48,433 nucleotides of DNA. It comes from Xylographa opegraphella (Eukaryota). Shown piece by piece: positions 2-31,684 of the stretch. Both the position numbers and the translations under genes were made by a program. The notes beneath the pieces were generated by a model, which was given only the letters and a program-made list of their open reading frames with translations, was not told the origin of the DNA and searched no databases. Numbering within the stretch: the stretch's first letter is position 1; every line of letters begins with the position of its first letter. The stretch covers positions 124,001 to 172,433 of the forward strand of contig JALDZX010000045.1 in NCBI GenBank assembly GCA_022813865.1. Reading direction: 5' to 3'.

Positions 2-2870
2 GCCGCAAGGGCAGAAGGCTTACGAGAAGTTATCGCTGCAGGCTCGGGGACTAAAGCGCAACGAAAGGGCCATATTCTCTATGATTTCATGGCACAGGGA
101 AATGATGAGGTGACGGTGGCTGTTGGCGACGAGGTGATTGTCCTCGATGATAGTACAGAAGAATGGTGGCAAGTACGGCGTCTCAAAAATGGGAAAGAGG
201 GAGTGGTGCCTGGCAGTTACGTGGAAGCCACAGGATTCGTCGCGCCAAATCCTCCGAGTAGTTCCGGCCTAAACGCAGGCCGGTCTACAACAGAAAAAAA
301 CCGACTTGAGGAAGACCGTCAGACTCGGGAAGCTATCAGGCTCTCAAAGAAAAGTGAAGGCACTGAATCAAAGGGTTCAGAGGTAGGCCCAGGAGTGAAA
401 TTGCCCACAAGAGGTAGCAGCTTGATGGGAGCTCAAGATAATAACGATTCGTCTTTACAGCAAAACAAGCGAGATAGCCGCTCCAGCACCAAGCCGAGTA
501 CATCTTCGTCCTCGAAGTCAAGTATGTTTCCTTTCCGGATGTGTGAACTTTGACTGACACAAGTACAGAGCCTGAGGTAGGAAGAACCCGTACGTGGACG
601 GATAGATCTGGGTCTTTCAAGGTTGATGCAGAATTCATTGGTTTGAAGGATGGAAAAATCCATCTACACAAGCTTAACGGAGTAAAAATCGCAGTACCTG
701 TTGTAAAGATGGCTATCGAAGACCTTGAATATGTTGAAAAGATGACGGGCGTATCGCTCGACGAAGATAAGCCTCTTTCAGACATTCGACGAAAAAGCCA
801 GAAAGAAACTCAAGCAAAGGAAAACGGCAAGGTACAGTCCTCGAACGCATCTGAATCTAATATATCGGCACTACTGGCAGCACAACAGACAAAAAAACCC
901 GACTACGACTGGTTCGATTTCTTCTTGAAGTGTGGCGTCAGCCCTTATCACTGCGACAGGTATAGCTCAGCTTTCAATCGTGACTCCATGGATGAAAGTG
1001 TACTTCCTGATATTACCCCACCAGTGATGCGTACACTTGGTTTAAAAGAAGGGGACATTCTCAAAGTTATGAAATATCTCGACAGTAAATTCGGCCGCTC
1101 TAACACCAAGTCAAAGTTGCGAAATGTTAGCTTTGGAGGCGAAGAATACTTCGGGAATGAAGATGGAAATGGCGCTGCAACGTCTCCAGGAGGGGGATTG
1201 TTTTCCGGTCCTGGCGGAGCTTTAAGAAACAACACACGAAAGGGACGTCCAGCTCCTACTGTCCAGACGAATGATACCGTTGATCCGGAAGCCTTCAAGC
1301 AAAGGGGCGAGGCGTCGCCCCCAAAACCTGTTGCAAAGGACAAATCTATCACACCATTAGCATCCGTTCCACCACCCGTAAGTAAGAGTTCTGGTGGTTT
1401 TGACGATGACGCATGGGACGTAAAGCCTTCGAAGCAGCGAAGAACCGATACACTGCCACTGACTGTCACGACCCCTGCGCCTACTGTGGCTACCCCTCAG
1501 CCTAAGCCCGCCACCGCGCCATCATCTCAACCTGCGTTGACTGGAACAATGGCAGACCTCTCCTTGCTTTCGCAGCCCTTGCAGCCTGTGGTAGCACACA
1601 ACATGGGGCAATCCTCCGCGACTCAAAATCAGCAACAGATAGGGCCACAGCAGACAGCCCAACAACAGGGACAGTTCCAAAACCCAGTACAGCAGCAACC
1701 ACTACCCACTATGCCTCAACAACAGCAAGCTCAACCGTTGCAGCAGCCCCCTGGAGCGTCTCCATCTTTCTTTGCCTCTCTCGGGCCCCAAACGAGCGGC
1801 GGACAGCAGCAATTAAATTATGGTTCACAGCCTCAATTTCCTCAAGTTTTCAATGCACAACCTACTGGCATAAGTCAACAGCAGAACTATAACCCCCAAC
1901 AGCAACAGCAACAACCACCGCAACCTCAGAGCTTGAACCCACAATCCACAGGATTCAATCAACCCCAATTCCAGCTCAATTCAGCGCCACGCCAGCGGCC
2001 ACAGGCCCCACAGTTCAACCAACAAGGCTCATTGATGCCTCCACCACCTCCCAGACCGCTGTCAGCGCCACAAAATGTCTCGACACAGAATAACTTCGGA
2101 CCTCCGCCGTTGCAACCGCAGCTGACTGGTGTTCCTATCCAAAATGGCTTTCAAAATCCAAATACCATGCCTGGTCAAAGTTTAAATGATCTCAATAAGA
2201 TGCGGATTCAGCAACAATTTCCGCAGCAATTGCCATTACAGAACCAATATACTGGATTTATGCAACCAAACCAGCCGCAGAATCAATTTAGCCACGGTTT
2301 CAGCCAACAGCCAAATCTCTATGGACAGCAAGCACAGCTTCAGCCGCAAATGACAGGCATTCAGCCTTCGCCTTTGTACCTTAATTCACAACAGACAGGT
2401 AGCCCGTTTGCTGATCCTCGGTCCCCCCCTCCTGGAATGTCTCAGCCTCAGTCAGCAAGTCTTACTGGATTCGCTCCGTCGATCTACAACCCACTTATTT
2501 CACAGCAAACGGGATCGATCAATTCGGGATTACCGCCTGCATTGCAGCCCCAGCAGACCGCTATGAGTGGCTTCAACCAGGCCGGATTTGGCCAGTCACA
2601 GCAGCAGCCTGGTGTGCCCCCATTGCCACCTATGCCTGCTATAACTCAGCCACAAGCACTGGCGCCTCTACAGCCGCAAAAGACCGGGCCCGCCCCTCCA
2701 GTTAGATTTGGGGTGGCGCCAGAGGCGAAAACACTCTTACCTCAAGCTACAGGACGGAGAGCCAATTTGTCTCATGCCAGTGAGTACTTGTCCCAGTGAC
2801 GTATTAATTGTGGTGCAAGCAGAGGTGCTAATTCGTCCTGGTAGCGCCTCAAAACCCATTTGGCTTCTGA
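2..2870 (+). CDS. SLA1: Actin cytoskeleton/endocytic adaptor Sla1, 5'-truncated by the window edge. Exons <2-521, 569-2779, 2845-2870
   Basis: SH3 domain (ILYDFMAQGNDEVTVAVGDEVIVLDD..EEWW..GVVPGSYV), SHD1 (TRTWTDRSGSFKVDAEFIGLKDGKIHLHKLNGVKIAVPV), SHD2/SAM-like region (DWFDFFLKCGV..MRTLGLKEGDI), Q/P-rich LxxQxTG repeats. Removing introns 522-568 (GTATGT..CTGAC..CAG) and 2780-2844 (GTGAGT..CTAAT..TAG) restores the frame and gives the typical end RRANLSHATPQNPFGF*. Confidence 0.95.
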
Positions 2871-7041: not shown

Positions 7042-8883
7042 TTATATTGTCTGTCGTAACATCTCCTCGATCTCATACGAGAGACCTGGGTAGTACGCGC
7101 CGACCAAATCTACAATCTCGGCACTCCCAACCAGACTAGGGTTGAGCGCTCCCTTTTTGTACCTCCTCTTTGCAGGATTCAGAAATGCTACCTCGTTCAG
7201 CGGGATCTCGTCCCGTTTCAGAAGATCAGTCAAATGCTTGATGGTTTCCACCTTCTTTGCCAGTATCTTCAGCTTTGAGAGGTTCCCGTCATTTTCGTCT
7301 TCGGAATCGGTGCCCAGCTTATGAACATCGGCTAGGTGCTCCTGGAATATAATCATATCCACCTCCTTGTTCGCGATGCTCTCCCGCAATTCCATGATAC
7401 GGCGGCGATGGAACTGCTTGTTGGTCGTATACGACGTCGCCGTCAGTTGCGGAATTATTCCCGGTTTTGCTTTGAACGTTCCTACCCACTCTTTACCACC
7501 ATCTCGCCACTCCTTCATCGTCCACGACGTCTTTATGGAGTCCGTAGCATCTACCTTGAAACCCGGATAGTCTGGTTCGACGATGCTTTTGGTGCCTTCT
7601 CCACCGATACGGTACAGCCAGCCGCCGAACAAAAGCGGAGCTGAGAAGTGCCTTGTGGCCGGATACACTTTGATATCGTATTTGGTATCGTTGTCGATTT
7701 TCGAAAGCGCTTCTTTATCACGTTGGATTTGGCTTGCCCAACTTTTGACTCGATCCTCGGCCTTCATCTGCTTGACTCTTGTCTGACTCACCCGGGTCTC
7801 AAGTATCTTGCATTGAGCTTCCCAATTGAGTTGAACGCGGATCAGCCGCTCTCGACAGCGGTCGTCTATCAGAATCATCTGATCCAACTTGTACGGTGTC
7901 ATCTGATCTATCGGCATCCCTTCTCGGTGGGAGACCGCATTTAGTATCCGAGATAGCCCGTTCCGGGACATTAATTCCTCAAATGCCGATACTTCCCCAG
8001 TTTCTTCGTCAACCGCTGGCTTGCTGTCCAGGAGGAAGTGAATAGGATCGAAGCCGAAGGTCTCGGCGAATTTTTGCTGTCTGTTTTCCAGCACCTTGTC
8101 ATACACACTTTCAGTTTGGTGCCGAGAGTACCTGTGCTTCTTGCGCTCTTTCGACAGTTCCTGATCCCAAAATTTGACTGTGAAGTTCGTGTTGACGACA
8201 ACGACGGATGCGAATAGGTTGGGCATACATTTCCGGTAATACTTAAGCATCTCGCCAAGCGTAGACGCAAAAGCGGTCTGAATGCTCATGATAAATATCA
8301 CGGAGTTGAGCCGCGCTTGTCCTTTGGATTCGGTATGCATCCGGTTCAACAGGGTGACGACCTCCATGATGTTTGCAAAATCATTGCCGTCACTATCATC
8401 CAATCCAGGTGAGTCGATGATCTGCAGATGCAATCTCGGATCTGCTGAGTCGACAGGCACCACTATCTCATCTTCGGGTTCAGCCCAGAGGGTGTCGAGC
8501 ATCGCTTTCTCAGAGGCCGGCAGTCGCACATCTTTGCCGCTTTTCGAATCGACCAGCTTGTAGCTGGTGAGTGGAACATCGAGCAAATATGATTTTGCCT
8601 CCGTCGTCTTGCTGGATATTCGGTTCCCTTCCGGCGCGTACTCGCCAGGAATCCGAGCAAGACTTCTGATCCGATTGATAAATGTACTCTTGCCCGTCTG
8701 AGTTGGGCCGATGATGAGGACATTTGCTGTCACGGGTGGGGACAGCTTACCCGATTGAGCACCGGTTCTCCTATAATCTTGTTCTCTCTTTGTGGAGTTA
8801 CCATCCTTGTTGAAATGCCTTCCGTTCTGATCGGACGCATGAGGTTGTCCGCTTTGACGCTCGCCTAAATGTAACCTGTGCAT
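7042..8883 (-). CDS. GTPase gene A (613 aa): TRAFAC-like P-loop GTPase (septin/AIG1/dynamin-like superfamily) followed by coiled coil, beta-rich domain and coiled coil; intronless
   Basis: Uninterrupted 613-aa ORF; G1 NVLIIGPTQTGKST, G2-like Thr (SSKTT), G3 IIDSPGLDDS, G4-like VVVNTNF; heptad-rich helices either side of a Trp/Tyr/Gly/Thr-rich segment. Confidence 0.85.
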   Translation of the reverse strand: MHRLHLGERQSGQPHASDQNGRHFNKDGNSTKREQDYRRTGAQSGKLSPPVTANVLIIGPTQTGKSTFINRIRSLARIPGEYAPEGNRISSKTTEAKSYLLDVPLTSYKLVDSKSGKDVRLPASEKAMLDTLWAEPEDEIVVPVDSADPRLHLQIIDSPGLDDSDGNDFANIMEVVTLLNRMHTESKGQARLNSVIFIMSIQTAFASTLGEMLKYYRKCMPNLFASVVVVNTNFTVKFWDQELSKERKKHRYSRHQTESVYDKVLENRQQKFAETFGFDPIHFLLDSKPAVDEETGEVSAFEELMSRNGLSRILNAVSHREGMPIDQMTPYKLDQMILIDDRCRERLIRVQLNWEAQCKILETRVSQTRVKQMKAEDRVKSWASQIQRDKEALSKIDNDTKYDIKVYPATRHFSAPLLFGGWLYRIGGEGTKSIVEPDYPGFKVDATDSIKTSWTMKEWRDGGKEWVGTFKAKPGIIPQLTATSYTTNKQFHRRRIMELRESIANKEVDMIIFQEHLADVHKLGTDSEDENDGNLSKLKILAKKVETIKHLTDLLKRDEIPLNEVAFLNPAKRRYKKGALNPSLVGSAEIVDLVGAYYPGLSYEIEEMLRQTI

Positions 8884-9725
8884 CTTTTAACAACCCCTAT
8901 CTAGCCAACGTCAGGTTTATGATCTGATAAGAGAGTTTTCTGGATAGATCATCTGCAGAAACTGGTCATAGGCGTAACAGTATTATCATTGGGACCTATT
9001 GTCATTATCAGCAAACGCCAACTTATTGCCTGTGTGGATGCCAAGAGCCAAAGTTTCTCCCTTGGTGACACTGGAGGCGCGATCGATGGGTGAGATTTAG
9101 CAGGCTAGAACTAAGGTAGACTACAAGAGGCCCGTGTTCAATAGCTTATCTAGTGTCACGCCTTTTGACTGAGCTGAGGATAGTTGTGCAGCCTATCCCA
9201 GAGGACCATGAGTGGATTAGGGCCCGACGTCGAACGCCACGAGTAACCGAACCTCAACCCTCTAATTTTCTGCTGTGACAAATTGATATGTCTTTCACAT
9301 TTCATTGGTCTTCCAGGTTCTGCGACACTAATCGCTGCCAGGCAACCAGTGCTGCAAACAAGAATGCCTGTCGGAGAGCCTCTTTCTGCAGCCTCGCACT
9401 CTTAAAAAGCTGATCACGAGGCTATCACTGAGGACAGACCGCGTCGTGCCAACCACCTCTTCTCCTTAGTGGTTGTGGAATCCCAACCTAAATATCTCTG
9501 GAGTGTACACTAATTCAGCCCCACGCCACCGGACATATCCTGGTAACCTTGGCTATGGAGTTAAGCTCAGTGATATCAGGTCCGTAAAATCACCGGACGC
9601 ATGTTGATTTGATTACTGGAAAATTGTTGATATATCCCATGTCTGTGATTATTGAAATCAATTAACCCCTAATAGTAGATTTCTGCTGATCTAGATTTTG
9701 GAGCTGGATCAGGCCGACGGAAACA
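8884..9725. promoter_or_regulatory. Probable bidirectional promoter between GTPase genes A and B
   Basis: 842-bp interval between the two divergent ATGs, with no ORF in the track. Confidence 0.5.
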
Positions 9726-11324
9726 ATGGATCAGGATAGGGATAGTGAATCAATCCCGCCCCCATACAGTCCACAGAACGAAACGAGTGAGATCAATGTG
9801 CTGATTGTGGGGGAGACGCAGCATGGTAAGAGTACATTGGTCCAAGCAATATCGTCGTACGCGGGAGCCGGATACGAAGACATTGAGATCGGAGACAATG
9901 GTCAGTCCTGTACTAAAGAAGTAGGCCGCTACTCCATCACCACCACGATTGACCAATATCAGCTTGTGGATCACAATGGCCATCCGGTTCTTGAGCAGTC
10001 ATGGAAACAATTGTACAAGCTGAAGGCACGCGACGCTCGAGTGGAGAAGGTCGTAGAGCCCCGGCGACGCTCACCAATCACGTTCAATTTCTTCGATACT
10101 CCAGGACTTGGTGACAGTGCGGGCCGGGACATGGAGATTATGGTGGATATCCTGGGTCAACTTGCAACTTTGAAGTATGTCAGCGCGATGATATATGTCC
10201 GCGCCGCCGACAAGCCCTTCAGCACTTCATTCGCCAAATTCTTCGACTATCTTCGACGCTCAATGCCGTCGCTATGCAACGGACTGATCATTCTCCACAG
10301 CAAATACACGACCGCGCAGTTAAATGAGGCCCTTGATCGTGGCGAGGAAGACCCAGAGGAGAACCGGCGGCAAACATTCGCAAAGAAGACTGGCCTTGAC
10401 CTGACCCACTTCTTCCTCGACAATGTACCGAGCGAGAGGAGCCCCTTCGCTCAACTTCGGACCCTTAACGAAACGTCAAACCTGCTGTCTCATATAGGGT
10501 CTCAAGTACCGCTGGAGGTTACCAATCTTCGTCTGCTAAAGACAGAGAGGATTCAGCGCTTCCAAAGCTTCGTTGCAAGCGATTTGAGGGAGCTGGCGAG
10601 ACGCCTGGAGGCCAGATGGGAAGAATTACGTAAGACCGCATCGATGGCGGAGCAATTGACGATGGACTCGGAGGCTGAAGCGACGAGATGTGAGGCGGCA
10701 ATCGAACGAATTGAACGTCAGATCAGCGATCTGAGCGGGTCGGGATTGGAGATACTGGGCACCAGGACCGTGGCACAGGACTACAAGATTTACAAGCATC
10801 TGATCAAGAACGCGAAGGTCAACCTAAAGGATCAAACGGTTTACTTTGAGGGCGACTGCAAAATCCAAGAGGTCCGCAAGTCCGCGTCCAGCAGCAGCAA
10901 ATGGGGAAACGAGAGCACTCGAGGCTCGAGCTGGAACGGCACGCTGTCATCGAACATGTTGAGAAGCATGCACGGTACCGCGACCTTCTACGGACGCACG
11001 TGCGATATCAATGCAAAGGAAATTGCGCTATTGAGAGCATCGGTGAGCCAGCAGAGCACACAGCTAGATTTCGTCCGGAACCAGGCGAAGAAGCTGAGAC
11101 GCCTGACCGGCGGCGACGAGGAGATGGTAAAGAAGCTTCGGTGCGGGATCGAGGCGTGCGATCGGCAGATCAAAGCGGCCGACAGCGAGCTGTATGAAGT
11201 GAGCGTGCACGAAAAGATCAAAGATCTGTACAAAGTGGACGGGAGGCCTTCGAGGCCAGCCGTGATTCAATTCATCGAGGCGCTCGATCCGCAGTTGGCA
11301 ATGCTAATGGTTTCGTACGGCTAG
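9726..11324 (+). CDS. GTPase gene B (532 aa): same module as gene A; intronless
   Basis: ATG in good context (AACAATGG); G1 NVLIVGETQHGKST, G2 QSCT, G3 FFDTPGLGDS, G4-like IILHSKY; HFFLDN matches HFLLDS of gene A; coiled coil and beta-rich insert collinear with gene A. Confidence 0.85.
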   Translation: MDQDRDSESIPPPYSPQNETSEINVLIVGETQHGKSTLVQAISSYAGAGYEDIEIGDNGQSCTKEVGRYSITTTIDQYQLVDHNGHPVLEQSWKQLYKLKARDARVEKVVEPRRRSPITFNFFDTPGLGDSAGRDMEIMVDILGQLATLKYVSAMIYVRAADKPFSTSFAKFFDYLRRSMPSLCNGLIILHSKYTTAQLNEALDRGEEDPEENRRQTFAKKTGLDLTHFFLDNVPSERSPFAQLRTLNETSNLLSHIGSQVPLEVTNLRLLKTERIQRFQSFVASDLRELARRLEARWEELRKTASMAEQLTMDSEAEATRCEAAIERIERQISDLSGSGLEILGTRTVAQDYKIYKHLIKNAKVNLKDQTVYFEGDCKIQEVRKSASSSSKWGNESTRGSSWNGTLSSNMLRSMHGTATFYGRTCDINAKEIALLRASVSQQSTQLDFVRNQAKKLRRLTGGDEEMVKKLRCGIEACDRQIKAADSELYEVSVHEKIKDLYKVDGRPSRPAVIQFIEALDPQLAMLMVSYG

Positions 11325-12620: not shown

Positions 12621-15600
12621 ATGGCAGCACAGCCAGTACTCCTCGTTCTTGGTCGAGTACGGCGTCTCCAGCTCATCTTTCTGCGAATCCTGAACCGCCA
12701 CGCCGCGGAACCGGATGCGGACGTCAATTTTACACGAGGCGATCCCACCCAAGCCGCGGTCTACCAGACAGATTTTGTCATCGAGAATTGGGAGGCGAAA
12801 AGCAGAAAGCTTAATGACATTCAAGCTGACCCTAATGAGAGTGATAATGTGGCCTCGCCCCAGTGCTCTGCCAAGGTTGTGGTTGCGCCCAGTCTCGACT
12901 GTTTCAAGGTACGTTTGGAATCAGCCAAATGGCTGCTATGTCCCGGAGCGGGATGCGCTCGTCGCCGAATATCGAGACAAACTGACGCTTGAAAACAGAT
13001 AGATGACTACAAGCAGGTGCTGGCCGGTATATACTCGGAGCATCATGTCTCTCATTTTTGCTTGGTCCGCAGTGATGGGCCGGGCAGGGTCAGACCAGAC
13101 GAGATCGTCGTCGTCAACGACCTGATCCAGTTCATCACAAGCCGATTTCCTACAGTGCACGGGACCGCAGTCTACATCGACGAAGATACTCTGCCGGAAT
13201 TGCAGAATCCCGCGGACGGTCCACCGTGTCTGCGAGGACTGGCTAACATGTTTCTGTTCGCAACGGAGCCGATGGCCGCGCGGCCACGGTATGCGCAGGA
13301 GAGGATGGTCGCAAACTTTCTGAGCACCTTGAGCCTCGCTGTGGTCCCCTCAGAAGTCCCAAAGAGAAACCGGTTGCCTCCGATTGTGTTGGGTAATGCT
13401 TTCAGGACTCTATTCGGGGTGCTCGAACCATTGCTATCGTACAGTCGTGAACTGCTGGAAGAGACTCAGGGACAGTGGTCGACTTCCCAAACTCTTGTGG
13501 ATGAGCTGCAGAAGGAACTAGGGGACGTCGCCACTGCTCTCACTTCGAAACAAGAAAAGCTGGCAGATTTGGACACCGAGGCTCTTGAGCTGCTCAAGGA
13601 CGAGTCGTTTAAACAACGGTTCTACATTCGTCCCAAAGATTTCAAGATCCATCTCACGACCGAGTATCCCATTCGAAACGTGAAAGAGGCAATTGGAGAC
13701 GACTCTAAGCAGCACTCTTCGAGCCATGCCGGCAATGAGTACCATGGGATCGTGTCCAATGCAGCTTTCAAGATGGGCTTCGCCAGGGTGGAGCTCTTTG
13801 GCTGGAGAAAGGAGGTCTATGGGGCCGAAATCCTGGACTTGAGATCCATTGTCGGCATACTAGAATCCGATAAAGACGACGCAACTGCGCGCTTGTCTGC
13901 ACTCAAACTGGAAGTGGCCTCCAAGGAGAACCGAGCTGCTATTCTACTCAAGACGCTCGAGACGATGGAGGCCGACTTACAGGCATTACGACAGCCGTAT
14001 GGCCGGCACTGGGAGTACGTAGCTGCAAAGCCGCAGCTCACGTTGGGCTCTCTTACCAGTGTCACGCAATTGCTGGGACTGGAGACTGCTATCCCCAGGT
14101 CGTACCCTATATATGCGTCTGGGTCGACGGAGAGTCCAGTTTCGCCATATCCCAAACCCGAAGAGCAGGTCGCATTCGCCGCCGCGGTGGAACACACAGT
14201 AGAAGCCCTGAGCGAGGGCCTACTCCGAGCCTTGCCTGCGCTCTCCCTATCCATCAGAAAGATAAAGGTATCCCTGTATGCCACGATAGAAGAACTTCGG
14301 GCTCTTGACGTTATCGAAATCCCTACAGCCATGCGGGAACCAACGTCCTCGGAGTTTGAGAAATGCCCAGAATCGAAGTTGAAGACGGAGGCCAAAGGCG
14401 CAGTGGAGAGCGTACGCATACAGCTCGAGCAGCTCCAGCAAAAGATCGTCATTCCTCAACGAGAGCGCCTGGGAGCAGTCATGGTTCGGGCGATTGCTAC
14501 CGCGAACGAGGTTGATCATCAGATACGGGATATTGATCTTCGGTTTCTTGCCGTGCAAGACTTGCTGGAGTATCTACGTGGTAACGAGGACGTTTCGCTG
14601 GGGCTGGCAACTGATTTAATCTCTCAACGGTGTCCACTCAAAACAATACAGAGCTTACTGTTGGCCAAGCAACACCAACTGGCGCTCGAGAATGGCGGCA
14701 AGTCGCAAGTGAACGACTCAGAATGTTCTGCAGAGGATGACATATGGCTCAATAGCTTCGGCTCATGGGGCAAAATTGAAGAAGACGTGAAGCGGCCACG
14801 CCAAGAAGGCAGTACCCTCCATGAGCTTCTCCCTCGAACCTCGAGTAATAACGCGACAGGAAATACGAACCCTGTCAGAGTGATTGTCCTGGGCAAGACG
14901 CAGGCGGGTAAGAGTTCTGTGCTGAAAGCTCTCCTGGAGTACGGTGAGCACAAAGAGCTTGCAGCGCAGGTGGTCACGGGGCGTGCAGATGTCTCCATCA
15001 CGGACAATGTGTCGAACTATGCGGCCTCGATTCCGATCCGGAAGCACGTCTGCGCACGGAAAACCGGCGAGATCGTGGAGGAGGCAGATTTTCAGAAGAT
15101 GAAAGATATCGCGAAGCGGAAGTTGGTCTATAAGAACGATCTCTCAGCCTCTTGGACGGTAAATTTGAATCTCATCGACACGCCAGGCTTGGGAGACTCG
15201 AGAAATATGGCTGAGCACATGCGACGGACCGATCAATTATCTCCGCCCCGGAGCGGTGAACAAAGCCAAGCACGACCCGCTGAGTATGTCGCCAATTCTG
15301 TGGACGAGAGACATAAGCTGTCTATAGTCGCTGCCTTGAACAAGGAATCCTCCATCAACGCCGTTTGTCTGATCATTAATTCTCAAGACAGCCTTAGCGG
15401 ATCCGTGAGCGCGTACCTTAACCAATATGTTAAGCTATTTCAGAAAACAAATGTCGAGTACGTTGTCATCCACACCGCCGTCGACTATAGCAAGATTTCA
15501 GGGGAAGACATGGAGCAGCGCAAGCTCCATGTTGATGAATTACTTGGAATCCGTGGTAGCCACCATGTGATCCAGACCAAAGTGAACACGGAGCGCGCTT

Positions 15601-17519
15601 ACGAGGCACACGCGCTCAACTTGAGCATCGCAGGCATCCTGTCAACCTTCCGGATGTCGGAGCCGCGAAGCTTAGGAGCTCTAGCTTATCCGAAAGAGAA
15701 TCTTCATAACAATATGGACGACACCATCCGGACCGTGTACGACAAGTACCTTAACCGCCTGAAAGTCGAGCTCGTAACCAAGGAGACCGAAATCAAGGCG
15801 ATTGAGTCAACCGGTGAGTCTTCCCGGCTCAATGCAAAATCGAGAGAGATCGACAGGCAAATCCGGGTGTTGCAGGTGCGACTGACCAATCTTGATACTT
15901 CGGAGGAGATATGGATGGATGGCAAAGAAGGGTATGAGCCGTACCATTCTTTCCTTCCCGTGCATTCGACGATCAGCTTTAGCTTCCTCGTCGATCATCC
16001 CATCCGCCGGGCCAAGGAGACCCACGAGCAGTATGGCTCCTGGTACGGCCTCTCTGGTTGCGAAGGTGAACGGTCGCTATCATGCAGATGGGAGGCCAGG
16101 TCAGATTGTTACGCACGAGCCGAGATTCACCTATATACCCATAAGCGAGACGTTCACGCAGTAGACATCTCCGGCATCCGCGATCAACTTAGCGGACGAA
16201 GAGCAGAGAAGGCGAACGTGCAGCGTGAACTCGAAGATATTGCGGGCAAGATCAAGGCGCTTAAGGACTCTGGAGAAGAATGCCTCGTTCTAGCGCGGGA
16301 GGCTGTAGCTGACAGAAGCAAGATGGACGTGACGGAGTACTCCCCGACCGCTTTCCCCAAAACCTGGTTTTTGTTCTGCGGCTGCGACATCCTCTGCTCC
16401 TCGTTCGGGTATCAGCTCGGTCTCGGATTGCCGGACGAGATGTTCGGCGACGTGAAAGATTTGTTTGTAGGTTGGAAGGAGGCTCTCGAGGACGAGGAAA
16501 AGGAGCAGGACACCCGGGCGGAGGTGTGCAAGCTGGTAGTAAGCAGCATAGGTGAGTGCATCACGACCTTAGCAGCGCTGCAGACCGCGATGTCATCCAA
16601 GATCGAGCAATATGACCGCGTAGTGGAAAGTGTCAATCGTCGACTCGCTCAGACAGAAGTCGTAACCCATCCAGACCGCGACGTGCTTGTCCAGTCTTTG
16701 CTCGACCATATGCAGGACCGTCTTGACCTATCTGCTTCGACCACCCGGCTTCAACCGAGGTCAGATATTCGACAGATGATGACCGAGGAAGTCGAAGCTA
16801 CCTGCCAGCTTGTGGATAATCTATCAAACACCTACGAATTGACAAAGCAATGCCTAAGCGAGGAGACCGACAACCTATGTGAAACAAGCGAAGCTATCGA
16901 TGCCCTTCTTGCACAAATGCAAACTATCTGTGGCAAGTGGAAGGCCTCCGAGAGCCATCATTTTTTCCGGGCTGCGGCATCCGCTGCTGCCAAGCGACTG
17001 ATCACCGGCTCGATACAGGAGAAGCTCCTTCCGATCGGGGCGTGGACCATCCTGAACCGTGCGATCGAGGCACGCAGAATGCTCGCCAGCGAGCAGAAGA
17101 ATTCGGTCTCGAGCGGGAACGGCGAGGCAGACGGCGACGTAGAACAAGCAGCCAAGGGGCACATCATCCTCTCCCTGGTCAGAGCGCTCGCCGTATTCGG
17201 AGAGGTGACCGCGCTGTACCACAGCGGACAACAGGATCCCGAGGCTGACTCAAGCGGTAACGACAACTTCTCGAGACCACCTATGTCCAGTCCCGGCAGC
17301 GTTCGATGTGACTCCCTGAGCTTGGGACCGCTGGACATGGTTTCCCGCTGCATGGCAGAACCGCTTTTTGGAGGACTGCCTAGGAGGTCGGCGCCCGTGA
17401 ACATATTGGAAACGCCAAAGATAGTTAAGAGGCGAGCTGGATGGGATCGCCCGGCACGATCTCCCGCTGCATGGCCGAACCGCTATGTAGAGGAGATTCT
17501 GAGAGGACGCCACCCGTGA
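12621..17519 (+). CDS. GTPase gene C (~1600 aa): tandem fusion of a degenerate GTPase module and an intact GTPase module. Exons 12621-12908 and 12999-17519
   Basis: ATG at 12621; a phase-0 intron 12909-12998 (GTACGT..ACTGAC..CAG) joins ..SLDCFK|IDDYKQVLAG.. in frame with the 1500-aa ORF. The second module has G1 VIVLGKTQAGKSS, G3 LIDTPGLGDS and G4-like VVIHTAVD; both modules carry the coiled coil/beta domain. The last ~65 codons run through a 119-bp DNA repeat, so the true 3' end is uncertain. Confidence 0.8.
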
Positions 17520-17998: not shown

Positions 17999-18100
17999 TC
18001 ATAATGCATATGTATTGCGGTGAAGTAAACCTCGAACAATTTAACAGTCGATAGAAATCCGATATAATTACTCATAATGCGTATGTATTGCGGTAAAGTA
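17999..18100. repeat. 29-bp imperfect direct repeat
   Basis: TCATAATGCATATGTATTGCGGTGAAGTA (17999-18027) vs TCATAATGCGTATGTATTGCGGTAAAGTA (18072-18100); two A/G mismatches. Confidence 0.8.
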
Positions 18101-18235
18101 TACTCGCACTCTCATATATCATACTATATACAACAACCCCGTCCTTTCAAAATGCACCCAACTCCCTCCATTCACCGCGTGCCCATGCAATCCAACCCAC
18201 AAACGCCGCATCACAACACAGTCCAGACCTTGCAT

Positions 18236-19351
18236 TCAATGCACCATCGACTTCCCAATGCGGCTCTCCCAATCCCGCGCGCGCTCGAAGCCGTTGGAAT
18301 GCGTCTGGTAGTCCATCATCGCCTGATAGACCTCCTCCTGGCTGTTCAGCACAAACGGGCCGTACTGCACGACTTTCTGATCGAGCGGCAGGCCCGCGAC
18401 GAGGAAGAAGCGCCCGCTCTCCGCCGCCTGCGCCGGCACCTCGGCGTGCACGTAGTCGCCCTCCCGCTCGAACACGGTGTTGTGGTAGCTCGGAACCGCT
18501 TTCCGGGCGTCGCCCTCCCCGAACGTGGTCTCGCCTTCCAGCGAGTAGGCGAAGGCGTTCCAGCCGATGGGCAGCGGCTGCTGGATCTGCCCGCCCGGGG
18601 CGATGGTGACGTCGAAGATCCAGACGGGGGTGTAGGCCAGTTCCTGCACGCTGTCCGTGCCGTGGCTCTGGCCGCTGATGATCTTCACAGTCACCTTGCC
18701 GTCATCCACCTGTATTGTTGGGATCTCCTGCGCCTTCAGGTCGCGATAGCGCGGCTCGCACATCTTTAGCTTCGCGGGCAGGTCCACCCACAGCTGCATG
18801 CCGACGTTGTCGCCCGAGTTCGGGTTCGGCATCTCGGCGTGCATGATGCCTCGCCCCGCGGTCATGAACTGCAGGTCGCCGGGCCCGATGGTGCCGGCGT
18901 TGCCGGCGAAGTCTTCGTGGTCGACGCTGCCGGAGAGGATGTACGTGATCGTTTCTTGGCCGCGGTGCGGGTGGTCCGGGAAGCCGGCGCCCGGGTGGAC
19001 GGTGAAGTGGTCGAGCATGAGGAAGGGGGAGAGGCGGCGCAGTTGGGGGGTGCCGATGGAGCGGCGCACGGAGGCGCCGGCGCCTTCGGACTGGGAAGTC
19101 GCGAGGAAGGAGAGGGCGATGGAGCGGGGGGTTGACATGTTGGCCGGGCTGAAGAAGGACGGGGGAGTGAAGGGGAGGGAGAAGATGTTGAAGGCGGGAC
19201 TCGAGCTCGCGGACGAGAGACCGAGAGCGGTGAGGCTGCTGAAGCTGCTGAAGCTGCTGAGGGAGCTGGTGAGAAACTTGCTGAGGGAACTGGAGCTGTA
19301 GAGGAGAGAGGCTGCGAGGCAGATCGTGATTGAGAGCAGAAGGCGCTTCAT
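18236..19351 (-). CDS. Pirin (bicupin, Fe-binding) family protein; alternative start at 19138
   Basis: EGAGASVRRSIG..PFLMLDHF..GFPDHPHRGQETITY..HEDFAG..GDLQFMTAGRGIMHAEMP..MQLWVDLP and the C-terminal YGPFVLNSQEE are pirin N- and C-cupin motifs. Confidence 0.95.
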   Translation of the reverse strand: MKRLLLSITICLAASLLYSSSSLSKFLTSSLSSFSSFSSLTALGLSSASSSPAFNIFSLPFTPPSFFSPANMSTPRSIALSFLATSQSEGAGASVRRSIGTPQLRRLSPFLMLDHFTVHPGAGFPDHPHRGQETITYILSGSVDHEDFAGNAGTIGPGDLQFMTAGRGIMHAEMPNPNSGDNVGMQLWVDLPAKLKMCEPRYRDLKAQEIPTIQVDDGKVTVKIISGQSHGTDSVQELAYTPVWIFDVTIAPGGQIQQPLPIGWNAFAYSLEGETTFGEGDARKAVPSYHNTVFEREGDYVHAEVPAQAAESGRFFLVAGLPLDQKVVQYGPFVLNSQEEVYQAMMDYQTHSNGFERARDWESRIGKSMVH

Positions 19352-20238
19352 CGGGCTGAGGAGGAGTTTAAGTAGTTGAGAGATGGAGAACAGGATGGGG
19401 CTGGAATATTCTCCTCGTTCGATGGCATTAGTGAGGCACCGGTAAGGACTGACATATAATTATCATCTGTTCGAGTTGGGAATAGGGATTCGAAGGCTTT
19501 TTCTCGCCGCTGATTAACGCTTACCCAAGTCTTTGGAGTGCTAGTTGTCATCGTGCGCCACACTAGGCACTTTGCCTCGGCAGGCGGGCCGCCAAGTGGC
19601 GCTCGAGACGTTCTAGAAATGCTCGAATAATCAGTAAGAATTAATCGTGTGCGACTTGCAAACCAACACGGATATATTCTTGTTGTGCATATGCAAGAGT
19701 CATTGACTGCTCAGTGTTTGACTTGCCGAACAGGGAATCTACGTTCTCCAGAATAGTCACATACGCTATTGTAGCAATTCACCCACTGGGAGAAGATTTC
19801 TTGGATTTCACGGTATCTGCTCTCATAACATATCAGGGCAATGAATCCCTCTCAACCACATCCCGCCGACCTATGCCTCCCGCGACACCACGCACCTGAA
19901 CCCTCCCGTGACTCTCAATGCTCGTATCGCCCGGCTTGCTGAGCGAAATCAACACATCTTCCACTTCGTGCATGACCCGGTTCGGCGCCATGCGATCCAG
20001 TGTCCGTCATTGCAAAAGGCAACTGATTCCGTCTCAAGCCCAACCATTGCGCAAATGCACGCAGGTATTGCAGACTCCACGGCGACGACATGCACAGCAC
20101 GCCCAAACGAAACCGCTTCCCCCAATCCATCCTTTCCAATACCATCCCCCTCGTCCCCCCCTCGCTCTCCCCTCGCCCCCCTTCCTCCCTCCCTCTCTAT
20201 TAAACCCCCCTACTCCCTCCCTCTCCATCAGACCCCCA

Positions 20239-20922
20239 CTACTCCCCCACGAACTTAACCTTCACCGACGCATTCACCTCCACATCCTCCGGCTCAAGCG
20301 CCAAAACCCCAATCCCGCTCGCCCCCGACGGCGGCCCACCCATCCTCGCCGTCTGCCTCGTCCGCCCCATCGTCACCGATCCCAAATCCTCAATCTGAAC
20401 AGCCACGACCCGCCTGCCCACAACGTCGGCCAAGTCCGCAGCCTTGGTGACGGCATCACGCATGGCAGCCCGGCGCGACTCGGACGCCACGGCAGCGAGC
20501 GTAGCGTCGGTGAGCGTCCACTTGGTGCTCTCGATGACGACGTGCGGCGTCGCGAACAGGGCGCCGGCGACCTCGGCCAGGGTGGCGAAGGCGCGGAAGA
20601 TGACGTGGAAGCGCGTGCTGGCGGCGTAGAGGCGGGCCGGGAGCGGGTCGCCGTGGCGGTCGTCGGGCACCCAGGTCTTGGTCGTGAGGGCTGTGGTGGA
20701 GAAGACGGTGATGGCGGCGTCGGGGGCGGCGTCGCCGGTGGCGGTTTTGGGCGATAGGGCTTGGAAGGTGGCGCGGAGGTCGTGGGAGGTGGAGGTGACG
20801 TCGTGGGAGACGGTCGATTGCGAGGGGCCTTCGGACATGACGGTGAGGGAAAGCACGGCCCGCTCTGCGGGGCGGGAGATGACGGATGCGCCGGTGACGG
20901 TGATTTCGAGAGGGGGAGGCAT
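20239..20922 (-). CDS. SIMPL/DUF541 domain protein (~227 aa), intronless
   Basis: MPPPLEITVTGASVISRPAERAVLSLTV...SRRAAMRDAVTKAADLADVVG...LEPEDVEVNASVKVKF matches the DUF541 pattern (ITVxG..P/D.A.L; A..DA..KA..LA; P...V.A.V.V.F). Confidence 0.8.
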   Translation of the reverse strand: MPPPLEITVTGASVISRPAERAVLSLTVMSEGPSQSTVSHDVTSTSHDLRATFQALSPKTATGDAAPDAAITVFSTTALTTKTWVPDDRHGDPLPARLYAASTRFHVIFRAFATLAEVAGALFATPHVVIESTKWTLTDATLAAVASESRRAAMRDAVTKAADLADVVGRRVVAVQIEDLGSVTMGRTRQTARMGGPPSGASGIGVLALEPEDVEVNASVKVKFVGE

Positions 20923-23056
20923 GGTGAGGTCTGTGGACGGATGCTTGAGCGTTGTTTTTTTGCGCTGGCGGAGCTGGAGTGTACAGCTACTCAGATGTTC
21001 TGCTTCGCAAGCAGTCACGTGAGATTCTGATAACGAGAATTGGTACGAATGTCTGCTAGACGAAACGGGGAACGCAGACGCCAGGAGAGAAACGCTGTGG
21101 AACGACTGGAATGGGAGAAATCGATGGGTGTTTTGATCAACAGAACTCAGGAAGCTTTAGGCAGTAGTAGAATAGACAGCGACAGTGAGCAAGCACCGCC
21201 ACAGCAATAAGACATTCGTCCCGCAGATGTTACACCTCCAGCATGAGTCAGAGTAGAGGTATTTCAGAATGCAAGTATCGTCTATTCCTTGTATCATGAA
21301 AGACCTTCCGCCAAAATCTGTCCCATGGAAGAAACCGGTTAAGTCTTGGCAGTGTATAATCAGCCGCTCACGCAGCTTAGCGAAACAAAGCGTTTCTACT
21401 AATCAACAGAACAGTTCGAAAAGACCTGATCAAACAAATCATCCACGGCCACGATCCCACAGATTCCACTGCTTCATCTACATAAGATATCATGGCTAAA
21501 CGGCCCTCACTATACGAGCAGCGTTCGGCAACTGAGAAACTGTTTGATTCAAGACTGCTTTGAACCATCTCATCCCAGCCCCTCACGTGCTCCCAGCATT
21601 CACCATCCGCAGATCGACCGATGACCACCCGGGTCGGCAAAAGGGGGGAAGTAAGAGGGAAGGTGGAAGTTCTCCCGGCACCGACGAGAACGCAGGGGAA
21701 GGAAGGAAAGCCCTCCCCCGTCTTTCCACTAGAAAATGTACATCCGTTGAAGTGATTTCAAACCCCCCACAGCCGGCCCAGTCCCACTATACGCGTTCTC
21801 GAGAAGGGGGGCAGGAGAAATCGAGATCCCCAAACCCCCAGCCACGGGTCCCCAAACCTCCAGAACAGTAGGTAACTTCCTACCTAGATGTGAGGACGCA
21901 CGAACGCGCTTCCCTAAGCATGCAGCCAGCCACTCGCTGCACTGCACTTGCGCTGTGCTTGCGATGCGGCCAAGGCAGGCAGACAGGCAGCCCTGCAACC
22001 GCCCGATTCACCCACCCCGGAGCCAACATCCACCCAGTCCAGTCGTGCTGCATCCAGCGCGCGTCTGACCAATGGCCACGGTCGCGGGATTGATGCTTCG
22101 TACGTAGATGGATGGTATCTCTCCCTAGACTACCTTGCCTATCCCTCTCTCACACTGTGTGTGTGTGTGTATGTGGGTGTTTATGCATGAGACCTATACC
22201 ATGCAGCACCCCCTTCCACCATGCCCGAAGCCCGCCCGCCTGCCCCCCCCAGTTCCCAGCAGGCATGCGTCTCTGACAGCTGTCAGACGCGCATTAGTCC
22301 TCGGTCGCGTCGAGGGTCAGGGACGGGGAAGGAGGAGGAGGAGGGTGGCCGCATGGTGGTGGGTACGAGAGGGCCGGGGGGGGGGCGTTCCTACAGCTAT
22401 CGCGACGGGGAAGAGAAGGAGGGAGCTGAGGATATCGTTGGGTTATTCCCAAGGGGGGGGGAATCTGCAGATGTCTTGTCTTGCACGACTGGATGGGATG
22501 CTTGCTGCAGCGCTCCCTCCCTCCCTACCTCCCTACCTTACCTTACTTCCCCGGTGGAAGCGCTTGTGCACGAAGCTGAGGTGCGATATTCAATCGGTCA
22601 GGCAGACACTTCGCGCGTTGAGGAATAATTTGATACCGTGAAAAAAAACACGAGTTTCTCTAGATAGGGGGATTATGAAAGGGGGGGGGCCCCCTGACCA
22701 TGCCAAACCAACGCCTCGTCTTTCTCATCCCATCCTATTTATCGGAGCTGAGCGGTGAAAGTGTGGGATTACTGTACCATCCTTACCTTACCTTACTACG
22801 GAGCATGTAGTGTCCATCATCCCAGGCTCCCAGCCCAGGAGCAGAAGCAAAACATGGCATGACCACCCTAGCGCACGGATCCTTTCATCCTACCTTTTCG
22901 TACGTATTCCGTAAGGTATCGTATGATAACTAGGTAGATACCTTACCCTACCTTACCACACCTTACCCGAAACAGCTTAACATCACCCACCACCCACCAC
23001 CCACCCAGCTAGCCAGTGCCCCCTTAAACCCCCCCCTTAGCACCATACCCAGCCCG

Positions 23057-23086
23057 ATCGTCATCGTCATCGTCATCGTCATCGTC
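23057..23086. repeat. (ATCGTC)n microsatellite
   Basis: About five tandem ATCGTC units, read directly. Confidence 0.8.
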
Positions 23087-26000
23087 GCCATCGTACGATT
23101 GTGGTTCGGAAGCTGAGAGCAACTACCGAGGACGCGAGACGCGCATCCCCCCAGACACTATGAACGTGTCTCCGTTACGGGATTATTATGGTGGGAGGGG
23201 CGTGTGTTTGGGGGTGAGGGGGTTGTCGTAGGGGGTTTACAACGGATTACTGGACGGGGCGGAGGGTAGGGTACATGATGGGATGGAGAGGTGGTAAGTC
23301 TGGTGGAAAACTGTTGGAGATGGTATGATGAGGTGGTGAGGCGGTGAGGGACGTGTTTCTAGGGCCTTGGGTGGGTGTGCGCTTGGATCAGCGATCTTGT
23401 TTGGTTTTAGGGGTGAGGGTTTGGGGCGGTGGGTGGGAGTGTCAAGGGGGAGAGCTTGCGTGCGGGGGGGATGTGTTAGGGGTAATGTGGAGTATGGTGT
23501 ATAACCCGGGGGGGGCACCTGGATGTTTGGCGTCCGAGTGGAAGCGAGTTGGGTTTCTTCGTGGGGTGGATGGGGTTGTGGGAGGAGGAAGGAGGAATGG
23601 GTGCGGAAGGGTAGAATTAGAGCGTTTGGTAAGCCATCCATGAGCGAGATAAATGCATTCGCTGTCAACGAGATTGATATTCCTCCTCAAGATCATGGGC
23701 TCGATATCCAGAGGAGTCCCATCCAAGAAGCAGCCACTTCACCTTCAAGCCCACCCATCCACAACGAGTGCCAAGCAACCCACAACCACCAAGCCTCCTT
23801 CGAAGAAAGCCAAGCCTTTTCAGACCGAGGTATTCCGTTACGCCGAAGCACCATCCGCAACCATGGAAAAGCAACATTCGCAAACACGCGCTTCAAGCAT
23901 CAAGGTTGGCTTGTCAAAAAGCTCCGTCCCACGTGGCCGTGGCATGGCATGGCGCATTACTCCAAGCCCTGGTATCCCGTAAATGAAAAAAGGGTTTCCA
24001 GTCCACCACTCTCGGTCCCGGCATCAAAAAGGCGCACACCGTCCACCTTTCCAAGCGAGCGCCGAATCCACGTCGAGAGACTCACGCTCCCCATGATGTA
24101 GATACTCAGTAGTAGTAGTACTAGGCACCCACAGCCACGCCATACATTACCATACCATACCTTACCGACCAACATCGCCCAGCCCCCATCAGCATCCAAC
24201 TCGTCATCACCCTCCCCCCTTAGAACCACAGCCCCTACTCCCACCCTCCCCCCGTACGTTCCGGCCGTCGTCGAGCTCTGGAAGGAAAACGAGGGTGCTT
24301 CCCTCCTTCCCTCCTTCCCTTCCCTTACCTTCCCTTACGCAGCGAACCACAGCTACGGCCTTCCGCCCCCTCAAGCCGACCAAACGGTCGCCAATGGGCT
24401 TGCAACGCATCCGCTTCCCGTGCGGAGAGCGTGCCGAATGCTGGTCGGCACCATGGCGTTGTCCCTGCACGCGAACGTCGCTTGGTGGGCCTAAGGTATC
24501 TTGGCGAAAATAGTGCCGACTTCCCGAGTCCCGGTCGGGGCGGCGGGGGGGGCGGCTTGGGGAGTCTGTTTCGAGACGAGACGAGCCGAGGATGGATGGA
24601 TGGGGCGATATGTTTGGTGTCTCTTTGGGAGTGCCGCATTGGGTGTGGAGAGAAGGAGAGAAGGGAGAGAGAGAGGGATCAGGAGCACGCTAAAGCGGAG
24701 GTTATGCCAGACCCGGGAAACGGACGCTGGAGTTTTGAAAAACCGCAGGTGCTGGCGAAATGATTCATGGGTTCTTTGTGGCTGGCAGTGCGATGGGTGA
24801 ATCGTGCAGGCCGTCATAAGACACGTGATAAGGTAGCTTCACCGTTCCCTACCTCACCATTCAAGCCCCGACGCCTTCCATCCATGATACCTTCCTTTCC
24901 TCCCTGCTCCGAAGCGAAAAGTCGGTACTGCTGAAGGCTGACGAACCGCCCATCGGAGCCACATCCAAACACAGCTTAGCGCAATGAGCAGCAACCAGAA
25001 ATAAGCAGTGGTCCAAGCGCAGGTACCTTCCCGCCGGGGCATCCCCCCATCTGACACTTCGGCTCCGATTACCCCCCCTCTTCGCCCTCTTAGCGGGCGG
25101 CCCCCCCCCCTCTCCACTTCCTTCCTCGCATCGGGCGTCGACACGATCAGATTCGACGATCGGAGATCTCAACACGGCCGGCAGGTTCGCACGGCACTTT
25201 CTGCTGGGCCGGGATGGACAAAAGCTGCGCCAATGACAGATGGGGACAAACCAACCGATTTCATCGTCATTGCGGGCCCCCCTGTGGGACGACGGCTGAT
25301 GGACCACCACGGCGTCCGGCGAACAGTGACGATCGGCCTCATCTACGATTCACGGGGTTGGAAAGATCCTGCCCCTCGATGTCTACGGCTCTGTTCACTC
25401 GTTCGTGGCGGGTTCGTGGCAAGTGGCAACGGGTGACGATGGCTTTTGATTAGTCCGGAGGTGAGTCCGTCCGATTATGCGCACTTAGCGTTGCAGCTCG
25501 GTCCCTGGGTACGGTTAGGTAGGTAAGGTCCCCCCCCTTAGGGCCCATCTGAAGGGAAGAGGTGCTTGCTGGAATGTGCTGCATCTAGACAACGAATTTT
25601 ACGAATAAGCGCAGTGATATGAATTGTCCCTCGTGCGTATTGGTATTATTCAGGGAAAGGTGCGTTGATACGAGGCCCAACCGCCCAACGTCGTTGATGC
25701 TGGATGGATCGCGTGGTGGTGGTTCCACCTCATGGGAAAAGGATTTGATGTCAATGCGAAGGCTCGATACTTTATTATGCTAGGTACAGTACGCAACGCA
25801 CCGACTGCTTTTCGTGGTCTACACTTCTCCTTCAAGTACGGCCGGCTCGAAACATCACCGCGAAATCGGACAGTCAATCAGATTCATGTCATGCATGCAT
25901 GCCGTGCAACCCTTTCCCTTGCGCTGCCGATGCTACACTCAACAGGCGCGTTGCTTTTCCCGTGCTGCCAGCGGCCTGCACGAAACAGACGTCTGGACTG

Positions 26001-29000: not shown

Positions 29001-29022
29001 AATCACCGTCTCGCTTGAGGGA

Positions 29023-30745: not shown

Positions 30746-31630
30746 TCTGTACGCTATCATATTACATACATAGCGTTCCATCTCGAACCAAATCCCGCAT
30801 ATACGACCATTTCTATACATTGGACACTTTCTGTTTTTCTCTGGAGCAAAAACTTCGTGGGGGGTAAACGAGAAGCGGGCGCTCTCACATCTCTTTTAGG
30901 GGAACCCACGGGAGCGCGGGGGGGTGGGGGGGGAAAAACCATGGCTTGCGGCGTCTTTTGTGGCGGAGCGGCGCTTTCATTCTTCCCAGGCGTCCAACAC
31001 GAAACCATTGCAGGTGTTTTATTTTTCTTGTCCTTTCTGCCTCGTGCCCGCGACGATTTCGCATTTTGCTGCGCATCGGAACCGCGAGCGACGTGTGCCG
31101 CTCCGCCTGCCTTATTAGAGGCCCCTTTTGCTGTCACATGTATGCGAAGATACCACCCGGCTTTATTAGAAGCCTTTTGCTTTTTTGGGGGGGAGGGGCG
31201 GGGGGAGGTTGTGTGTGTGTGAGTGTGAGTGTGTCTCTGTGTGTGGAGGCAGACACTCACATTCCGGCAGAAGAACTTTTTCCCGCCATTGATGGGGAAG
31301 CCGGGAGGGAGGTTCTTCTCTTTCTTTTAATTTGGTCGGATCATCTGTGGGGAGGCCGGCTCTTTTTGTTTTTCCCTCTGGTAATATAGTGTCTATCGCT
31401 GGCTCTTTGCTGCTTTTTTCCGAGCGGGGAGGGAAAGGCGGTTTGCTGGGTTGGGGGGTGGTTTTGGCCCCACCTACGCCGTACGTCTCGTTGGATAAAT
31501 AAGCGCACTTAGGCGAAGCACTTTCACCGTTATTATCGCTGGTGCGTGTGGTGCTTGTGACGGTGGTGGGAAAGGGAGGGGAGGGGAGGGGATGGTGGAT
31601 GTGCAATGGGAATCGTGATGCGTGATATCA

Positions 31631-31684
31631 GCATCTGGATCTGCATCTGCATCTACATCTGGATCTGCATCTGCATCTAGATCT
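31631..31684. repeat. (NNATCT)9 hexamer microsatellite in the low-complexity nsdD-FAS2 convergent spacer
   Basis: GCATCT/GGATCT/ACATCT/AGATCT units read directly. Confidence 0.75.

Follow-up and report, generated by a model that had tools for sequence, protein, structure and literature searches.

A two-module protein of a fungal GTPase family in which the first head is probably a degenerate G domain

In DynA of Bacillus subtilis, two modules, each consisting of a GTPase (G) domain and a stalk, are arranged head to tail in one chain; both heads are described as binding GTP and both as having to be loaded for hydrolysis (PMC8844932). Known pseudoGTPases, in turn, serve as interaction modules or scaffolds, as set out in the publications on AAGAB (PMC12490416) and Mmc1 (bioRxiv 10.1101/2023.10.03.560745). 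Here, we analyzed a 48,433-nt stretch of DNA from Xylographa opegraphella (GenBank assembly GCA_022813865.1, contig JALDZX010000045.1, positions 124,001 to 172,433), hereafter called the window, whose sequence is fungal and which carries a row of three related genes, A, B and C. Gene C (12621–17519, + strand) has one intron, and its joined product is a protein of 1602 amino acids (aa). Sequence comparison indicates that this protein is made of two modules of one fungal dynamin/AIG1-like GTPase family, with a coiled-coil/beta domain present twice. We consider it likely that module 1 carries a degenerate head, with the element order of a G domain and weak in-register similarity to the family, and that module 2 carries the intact motifs. 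A preliminary description, made from the letters of the window without database searches, had drawn a parallel to DynA. The architecture is shared, but DynA is reported to bind GTP at both heads (PMC8844932), whereas the 1602 aa of gene C contain a sole canonical P-loop (GKTQAGKS, aa 728), accompanied by DTPG at aa 823, and hence one P-loop in place of two GTP-binding heads.

Exon 1 of gene C (12621–12908, 288 nt, 96 codons, aa 1–96) begins with the ATG at 12621 and ends with the residues SLDCFK. The 90-nt phase-0 intron (12909–12998) has GTACGT at its 5′ end, a CTGAC branch-like site, CAG at its 3′ end and an in-frame TGA at 12990–12992. Exon 2 (12999–17519) starts with IDDYKQ and ends with the TGA stop at 17517–17519. 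The intron had been proposed in the preliminary description as the link between a 96-codon exon and the long open reading frame (ORF), and its coordinates proved exact. An NCBI model annotated as a hypothetical protein of X. opegraphella (P0005) is 100% identical to the gene C product over 1602 aa, and the NCBI models of two sister species in Xylographa, P0011 and P0012 (both 1601 aa), begin with the same 96-aa exon, ungapped. The exon had also been called hidden; on this comparative evidence it is real, but it is already part of the public annotation (P0005) and is not newly found. Among the three species, exon 1 is identical at 66/96, 56/96 and 56/96 positions (58–69%). In-frame translation past the GT donor gave identities of only 2/24, 6/30 and 2/24 in the three species pairs, and translation upstream of the ATG gave 3/47; in these alignments the interspecies similarity of exon 1 extends from the ATG to the GT donor and no further on either side. 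The codon-position pattern of G+C content (GC1/GC2/GC3) of exon 1 resembles that of exon 2. Two intron-blind ORF fragments from a library of 1.84 billion proteins (P0013 and P0014) have first 96 matched residues identical to the sister-species models, and in both, Val-Ser stands directly after SFK, as expected from a GT donor (Val = GTx). P0013 reaches a stop 24 codons into the intron, and in P0014 the read-through of the intron enters exon 2 in another frame; for the latter species, the protein letters alone imply an intron of ~89 nt. Since read-through gives a stop or a frameshift in P0013, P0014 and the window, splicing would be needed in all three species.

That exon 1 is foreign to gene C, being a separate small ORF or a prediction artefact of one annotation pipeline, is most improbable. 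In favour of such an origin, the splice is one predicted from sequence comparison, and intron-blind ORF calls begin at Met97 in two relatives. In addition, the style of the locus tags indicates that the three NCBI models may share one pipeline, in which case the models would not be independent, although the ORF conservation would be. Codon 97, the first of exon 2, is Met in P0006, P0007, P0011 and P0012 but ATA in the window, where the next Met after it lies near aa 180. Because aa 97–179 are >70% conserved between species, they need an upstream start. This requirement, the conservation that runs exactly from the ATG to the GT donor, and the stop or frameshift obtained by read-through argue that exon 1 belongs to gene C. 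When the contigs of three sequencing runs were compared at 80% likeness, no match from relatives was obtained. Within exon 1, at 12817–12886, the assembly graph branches in the contigs of run X1, possibly the source of the DNA: five contig pieces converge on ~70 nt, and at 12844–12880 the summed depth is ~fivefold higher. This points to a short stretch that recurs elsewhere in the genome; the window itself contains it only once.

Two copies of the coiled-coil/beta domain are present in gene C. Domain 1 (aa 246–445, 13446–14045) is predicted to form a long helix, a beta tip and a second long helix, and carries the (E/D)(Y/H)PIRxxKE motif at 13662–13688; domain 2 (aa 1010–1200, 15738–16310) carries DHPIRRAKE at 15990–16016. 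BLASTP matched aa 246–381 of gene C to aa 288–440 of gene B with an expect value (E) of 2e-5. When the N-terminal half of gene C was aligned with its C-terminal half by hhalign, aa 266–402 fell on aa 1040–1181 (E 2.9e-4, score 42.1), and none of the 26 controls reached this score (25 column shuffles, maximum 30.4; reversed sequence, 15.2). The aligned halves share the stretches LxxLDT, (Y/H)PIRxxKE and (F/Y)AR(V/A)E...(E/D)(V/I)(Y/H). With hhalign profiles restricted to the coiled-coil/beta domain, E was 2.7e-5 between the N-terminal and C-terminal copies, 3.1e-4 between the N-terminal copy and gene B, and 4.9e-3 between the C-terminal copy and gene B. The earlier claim that the same domain follows the N-terminal head is thus well founded. 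Self-BLAST of the N-terminal against the C-terminal part of gene C gave nothing significant (best colinear match, E 9.5), and BLAST of the N-terminal part against gene A was not significant either (E 1.1). An extra helical region had also been said to recur after the second GTPase domain, and this claim found no support: the regions after the two coiled-coil/beta domains showed no significant likeness to each other (best hhalign E 0.03–0.4). The first of these regions, together with the linker (aa 446–700, 14046–14810), has no assigned family; it gave no Pfam match and no significant hhalign match to the C-terminal region (aa 1201–1602 plus the TGA stop, 16311–17519; 60–64% identity between species), and an Atlas feature search with aa 246–700 gave no usable match. 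As part of the overall reading that we regard as likely, each module would comprise, in this order, an alpha/beta G-type domain, a helical hairpin that carries a small beta ‘tip’ domain, and another region without assigned family.

We then compared the N-terminal module with a family profile built from nine whole-module sequences (two of gene B, three of module 2 of gene C, three from relatives in Podila, and gene A). The whole N-terminal module scored 75.6 (E 1.9e-9), with a Viterbi path of 7–418 on 15–467; when the columns of its head were shuffled, 0/30 profiles reached 75.6, and the shuffled paths started at aa 222–246. The head alone (aa 1–245) scored 28.3 (P 0.0045) over 144 columns, 7–156 on 15–180. 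None of 110 column shuffles reached this score (maximum 21.2, mean 15.0, standard deviation 2.4), and the reversed profile scored 13.2. In the Viterbi alignment, LLVLGRVRRLQLIFL was placed on VLIVGETQHGKSTLV, VVVAPSLD on FFDTPGLGD, VLAGIYSEHHVSHFCLVRS on ILGQLATLKYVSAMIYVRA, and RFPTVHGTAVYI on SMPSLCNGLIIL. This profile–profile alignment exactly reproduced the positional alignment of the N-terminus with the G domains given in the preliminary description, and all strings quoted there are present in genes C and B; VLAGIYSEHHVSHFCLVRSD corresponds to aa 103–122 of gene C.

Several results weigh against a degenerate G domain at this position. About six profile set-ups were tried for the head, and the P of 0.0045 needs that discount. 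Shallow-profile hhalign of head 1 against head 2, gene B and gene A gave E of 0.25–0.6; a profile of 22 G domains gave E 0.088 over aa 6–33, in register but short; and in the global mode of hhalign, the score against the G profile was 8.8, with shuffles scoring up to 11.3. In hmmsearch with a hidden Markov model of the G domain, the score of head 1 was reached by 400 and by 33 of 1000 shuffles, and the third ortholog was unscored. A phmmer search with aa 1–245 against 1.84 billion representatives found just three proteins; each of them matches Xylographa models, and there was no GTPase among them. Pfam assigned no family to exon 1 or module 1. The Atlas features of aa 1–245 pointed to AIG1/MMR_HSR1 clusters at 0.80–0.82, a level also reached by shuffled proteins. 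It could be argued from these mostly non-significant tests, from the low confidence of the AlphaFold models described below, and from the fact that three-layer alpha/beta folds are common, that only the coiled-coil/beta domain was duplicated and that the place of the G domain is occupied by chance in aa 1–245, either by an alpha/beta domain without relation to it or by rapidly evolving sequence. We regard this as unlikely, because the in-register 144-column alignment lies above all 110 shuffles and agrees with strands and helices predicted by an independent method, the structural matches are nearly all TRAFAC-type GTPases and not generic Rossmann or flavodoxin folds, and the domain lies as far from the coiled coil as its counterparts in the family do.

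Structure prediction would provide separate, weaker support for a G fold of aa 1–245. AlphaFold was run with aa 1–245 and with aa 1–442 of P0011. Three points count against the weight of the outcome: the input alignments held only four sequences each, the mean predicted local distance difference test (pLDDT) values were 47.5 and 47.9, with the other four models of each run scoring lower, and the Foldseek searches rest on these low-confidence models. Both models placed beta1 at 6–11, alpha1 at 14–28, beta2 at ~50, beta3 at 82–88, alpha2 at 97–111, beta4 at 115–120, alpha3 at 129–145 and beta5 at ~151, and the order of these elements corresponds to the topology of a G domain. Exon 1 (12621–12908) is thereby predicted to encode beta1, alpha1, beta2 and beta3, and the rest of the putative pseudo-G domain (aa 97–245, 12999–13445) alpha2, beta4, alpha3 and beta5, followed by a helical part of low confidence. 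Of the G-domain fold suspected for aa ~1–250, the models show the order of strands and helices, at low pLDDT. The longer model contained helices at 224–295 and 366–427 with a beta tip between them; pLDDT rose to 77 in the helices and was low elsewhere. With the module 1 model, 44 of the 46 Foldseek matches listed (E from 3.6e-4) were either GTPases or chains from complexes that contain a GTPase, and septins were present among them. With the longer model, bacterial dynamin-like proteins came top (E 2.6e-4 to 3e-3; template modelling (TM) scores of 0.14–0.2). A prediction of the complex between the second and the first head scored 0.01 and carries no weight either way.

The first ~28 residues are hydrophobic, Arg-rich and amphipathic, and might be read as an organelle presequence or a membrane anchor in place of beta1 and alpha1. 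The stretch aa 6–24 has the third-highest hydropathy in the protein (1.53), and the sequence as read has R12, R14, R15 and R22 and no acidic residue between A2 and E30. We nevertheless hold a presequence or anchor to be very unlikely, since both AlphaFold models place aa 6–11 as a strand of the sheet and aa 14–28 as the next helix, with pLDDT values that are in part among the better ones for this domain, the profile alignment begins in register with beta1, at aa 7, and the orthologs have Glu at position 3. A hydropathy scan of gene C revealed no clear membrane segment.

The two heads differ in their motifs. The intact G domain of module 2 (aa 715–975, 14853–15635) contains the P-loop GKTQAGKS at 14892–14915, DTPG at 15177–15188 and IHTAVDY at 15468–15488. 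In module 1, the G1 motif GxxxxGK[ST] is absent in 3/3 species, with GRVRRLQL (aa 11–18, 12651–12674), GRGRRLQR and GRPRRLQL at the position aligned with GETQHGKS and GKTQAGKS of the family. The G3 motif DxxG is likewise absent in 3/3 species, and the position that aligns with F(N/L)xxDTPGLGD is occupied by VVVAPSLD (aa 86–93, 12876–12899), VVVAPGID and VVVAPSFD. The HTxxD motif of the family, which stands after beta5 and concerns guanine specificity, is missing from module 1 in the same three species; the Viterbi alignment ends at aa 156, and in an extended alignment YIDED (aa 155–159) faces the family H(T/S)xx. The absence of GKS and DxPG from module 1, noted in the preliminary description for this gene, thus extends to both sister species. 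DGPG at aa 122 was considered as a G3 motif and rejected, as it lies after beta4 and is MAPC in one species.

In these interspecies alignments, module 1 is about as conserved as the active module: identity was 72–75% for aa 97–245 vs 75–77% for the active G domain and 57–64% for the regions after the coiled-coil/beta domains. On a tree of modules, the branch of the N-terminal module measured 2.76 vs 1.1–1.6 for the others, and this long branch together with the present conservation fits rapid change once catalysis had been lost and constraint thereafter. With the Lys/Ser of the P-loop and the Asp/Gly of switch II lost, head 1 should not bind GTP; module 1, to judge from its residues, should neither bind nor hydrolyse GTP and would be a class i pseudoGTPase. 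It might be objected that module 1 binds nucleotide through non-canonical residues, perhaps the Arg-rich GRxRRLQ, and, far from being a dead head, works as a regulated switch of atypical kind, given that GRxRRLQ is kept in 3/3 species and that module 1 is conserved like module 2. Such binding seems distinctly improbable to us in view of the replacement of Lys/Ser in the P-loop, of Asp and Gly in switch II and of the HTxxD motif of the family, and of a modelled beta1–alpha1 loop of only ~2 residues.

The remaining members of the family help to place the degenerate head. Gene B (9726–11324, + strand) is a single-module paralog of 532 aa, with a G domain and a coiled-coil/beta domain, and 532-aa orthologs of it exist. 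Gene A (7042–8883, − strand) is a single-module paralog with a 613-aa ORF, the P-loop GPTQTGKS and DSPG. GxTQxGKS and D(T/S)PG are thus present in A, B and the second half of C, and the C-terminal half of gene C matched the B family by hhalign with E 6.2e-11. Pfam matches of A, B and C were weak (MMR_HSR1, Dynamin_N, AIG1, Septin and IIGP), and only B passed a cut-off: for MMR_HSR1 (cut-off 21.9 bits), gene B scored 26.2 and module 2 of gene C 19.9, just below it but with GKTQAGKS and DTPG. None of the three reached the Dynamin_N cut-off of 27 bits (gene C, 18.2; A, 23.0; B, 20.4), and gene C stayed below that of AIG1 (14.3 against 27 bits). A search of the PDB by sequence with B and module 2 as queries gave nothing below E 0.005, and the match at that level was spurious. 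A word-indexed search with aa 701–1200 retrieved distant relatives in Podila (Mortierellomycota) of 989–1566 aa with 2–4 intact tandem P-loops, one of which (P0016) scored 51.2 bits for Dynamin_N, above the cut-off of 27. In this family, a tandem arrangement of the G domain is therefore nothing unusual, and what sets gene C apart is the head without motifs. Together with the two-module reading as a whole, we regard it as likely that gene C is a member of a family of large GTPases in fungi, intermediate between the dynamin-like and the AIG1/MMR_HSR1-like families. In two Podila proteins with 3–4 intact P-loops (P0015 and P0017), the third G module has a degenerate DxPG (KGPS, EGPG) and keeps its P-loop. 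Partial decay of single heads may recur in this family, as these two proteins suggest. Genes A and B are divergent, with an 842-nt intergenic region (8884–9725) between them. The cluster of paralogs A, B and C may be co-regulated.

The preliminary description had ascribed the two modules to an internal duplication of ~750 aa, a claim that could not be sustained as stated, as such a duplication is indistinguishable from a fusion of paralogs. In the module tree, A, B, module 2 of C and the Podila relatives formed an open polytomy; internal duplication and fusion of neighbouring paralogs therefore appear about equally likely from the sequences. A read-through fusion of two neighbouring paralogs of the A–B–C cluster is, in our estimate, quite possible, if a little short of even. 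Three paralogs stand in a row at the locus, the orthologs of B and C have adjacent locus tags in a second species, and gene fusion is reported as the origin of DynA (PMC8844932). The N-terminal coiled-coil/beta domain, moreover, matches B (E 3.1e-4) almost as well as it matches the copy in module 2 (2.7e-5), and the polytomy, with the N-terminal module on its long branch, leaves room for such an event. The best-scoring pair is still that of the N-terminal copy with module 2, however, and both modules of C, unlike B, have a long region after the coiled-coil/beta domain, though these regions have no significant similarity to each other; both observations speak for internal duplication.

If module 1 is a degenerate head, we infer that the dead head may be kept as a structural part. 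Head 1 and its stalk would then act as a fixed, nucleotide-independent partner or scaffold for module 2 and hold the stalks together. One catalytic head per chain would be left for GTP-dependent dimerisation in trans, either with other copies of the protein or with the paralogs A and B. A more far-reaching scheme would see in the A–B–C cluster the fungal equivalent of the immune GTPase loci of animals, and in the dead head of C a built-in decoy or sensor. A decoy role has been proposed for tandem IRG proteins. In the like manner, the dead head of gene C would retain the shape of an active one so as to be engaged by the effector of an antagonist, or by a partner paralog, and this engagement would act as a switch on the live head of that chain. 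We give such a decoy very little credence; if true, it would be the first ‘integrated decoy’ GTPase in fungi.

Other parts of the window were surveyed as well. A divergent pair of fungal type I fatty acid synthase (FAS) genes occupies 33330–38390 (− strand) and 40158–45425 (+ strand), with the domains of an alpha-subunit (ACP, KR, KS and PPT) and of a beta-subunit (FAS_N, SAT/AT, helical, DH and MaoC). The G+C content of this stretch is 0.48, lower than that of the neighbouring 18–34 kb (0.56–0.59). At 2–2799 (+ strand), an SH3 domain is followed by SLA1 homology domain 1, and this looks, from its domains, like a gene for an SLA1-type endocytosis adaptor cut by the start of the window. The ~15 kb of higher G+C at 18000–33000 contains only short ORFs under the standard code, and four of these ORFs, of 192–557 aa, gave no Pfam family; the stretch may hold intron-rich genes or none.

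The preferred reading, an intact module joined to a module with a degenerate head, can be set against the known systems. From DynA, gene C differs, beyond the missing P-loop of head 1, in its sub-threshold Dynamin_N score, in that no paddle-like hydrophobic segment stood out, and in that the two have no detectable sequence relation. In p190RhoGAP, GTPase-like domains without nucleotide binding are described as standing in one chain with other functional domains, whose full activity requires them (PMC5593906). Neither family nor architecture is related to that of gene C, and the pseudo-domains there have a RhoGAP domain beside them in place of an active paralogous module that brings its own stalk. 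The class i pseudoGTPase AAGAB/Irc6p is a small stand-alone G-like domain with an unrelated partner and has a solved structure, whereas module 1 of gene C is represented by a low-confidence model. Mmc1, as the preprint presents it, is a fungal dynamin-related protein without GTP-binding residues that self-assembles and has been proposed as a scaffold (bioRxiv 10.1101/2023.10.03.560745). It is a stand-alone protein of the mitochondrial inner membrane, whereas gene C fuses a dead head to a live one. In the searchable literature on dynamin-like pseudoGTPases, a dead head with its own stalk joined to a live paralogous head was not found, and the match listed there was a stand-alone protein.

Several G domains of one family per chain also occur in animals, as in GIMAP8, for which three potential G domains are reported (PMC4201521). 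Tandem IRG proteins, such as Irgb2-b1, likewise combine related G domains within one polypeptide. The domains of GIMAP8 and of the tandem IRG proteins keep their P-loops. These are animal immune GTPases, and the Pfam scores of gene C for AIG1 and IIGP are far under the cut-offs. Septin pseudoGTPases have lost catalysis and kept their place in hetero-oligomers (PMC10731463). They differ from gene C in being separate polypeptides and not a fused head. Many septin pseudoGTPases still bind nucleotide. The stakes are limited, in that the family is without known function, the gene model is already public, and the proteins found to carry the N-terminal domain all match Xylographa models. If the two-module reading is right, gene C would amount to a natural experiment on the roles, other than catalysis, that a G domain has in assembly-stimulated GTPases, and aa 1–245 and aa 715–975 would form a defined pair of constructs for it. 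As a whole, tandem GTPases, pseudoGTPases and dynamin-like pseudoenzymes are each known, and gene C would be a modest variation on these designs.

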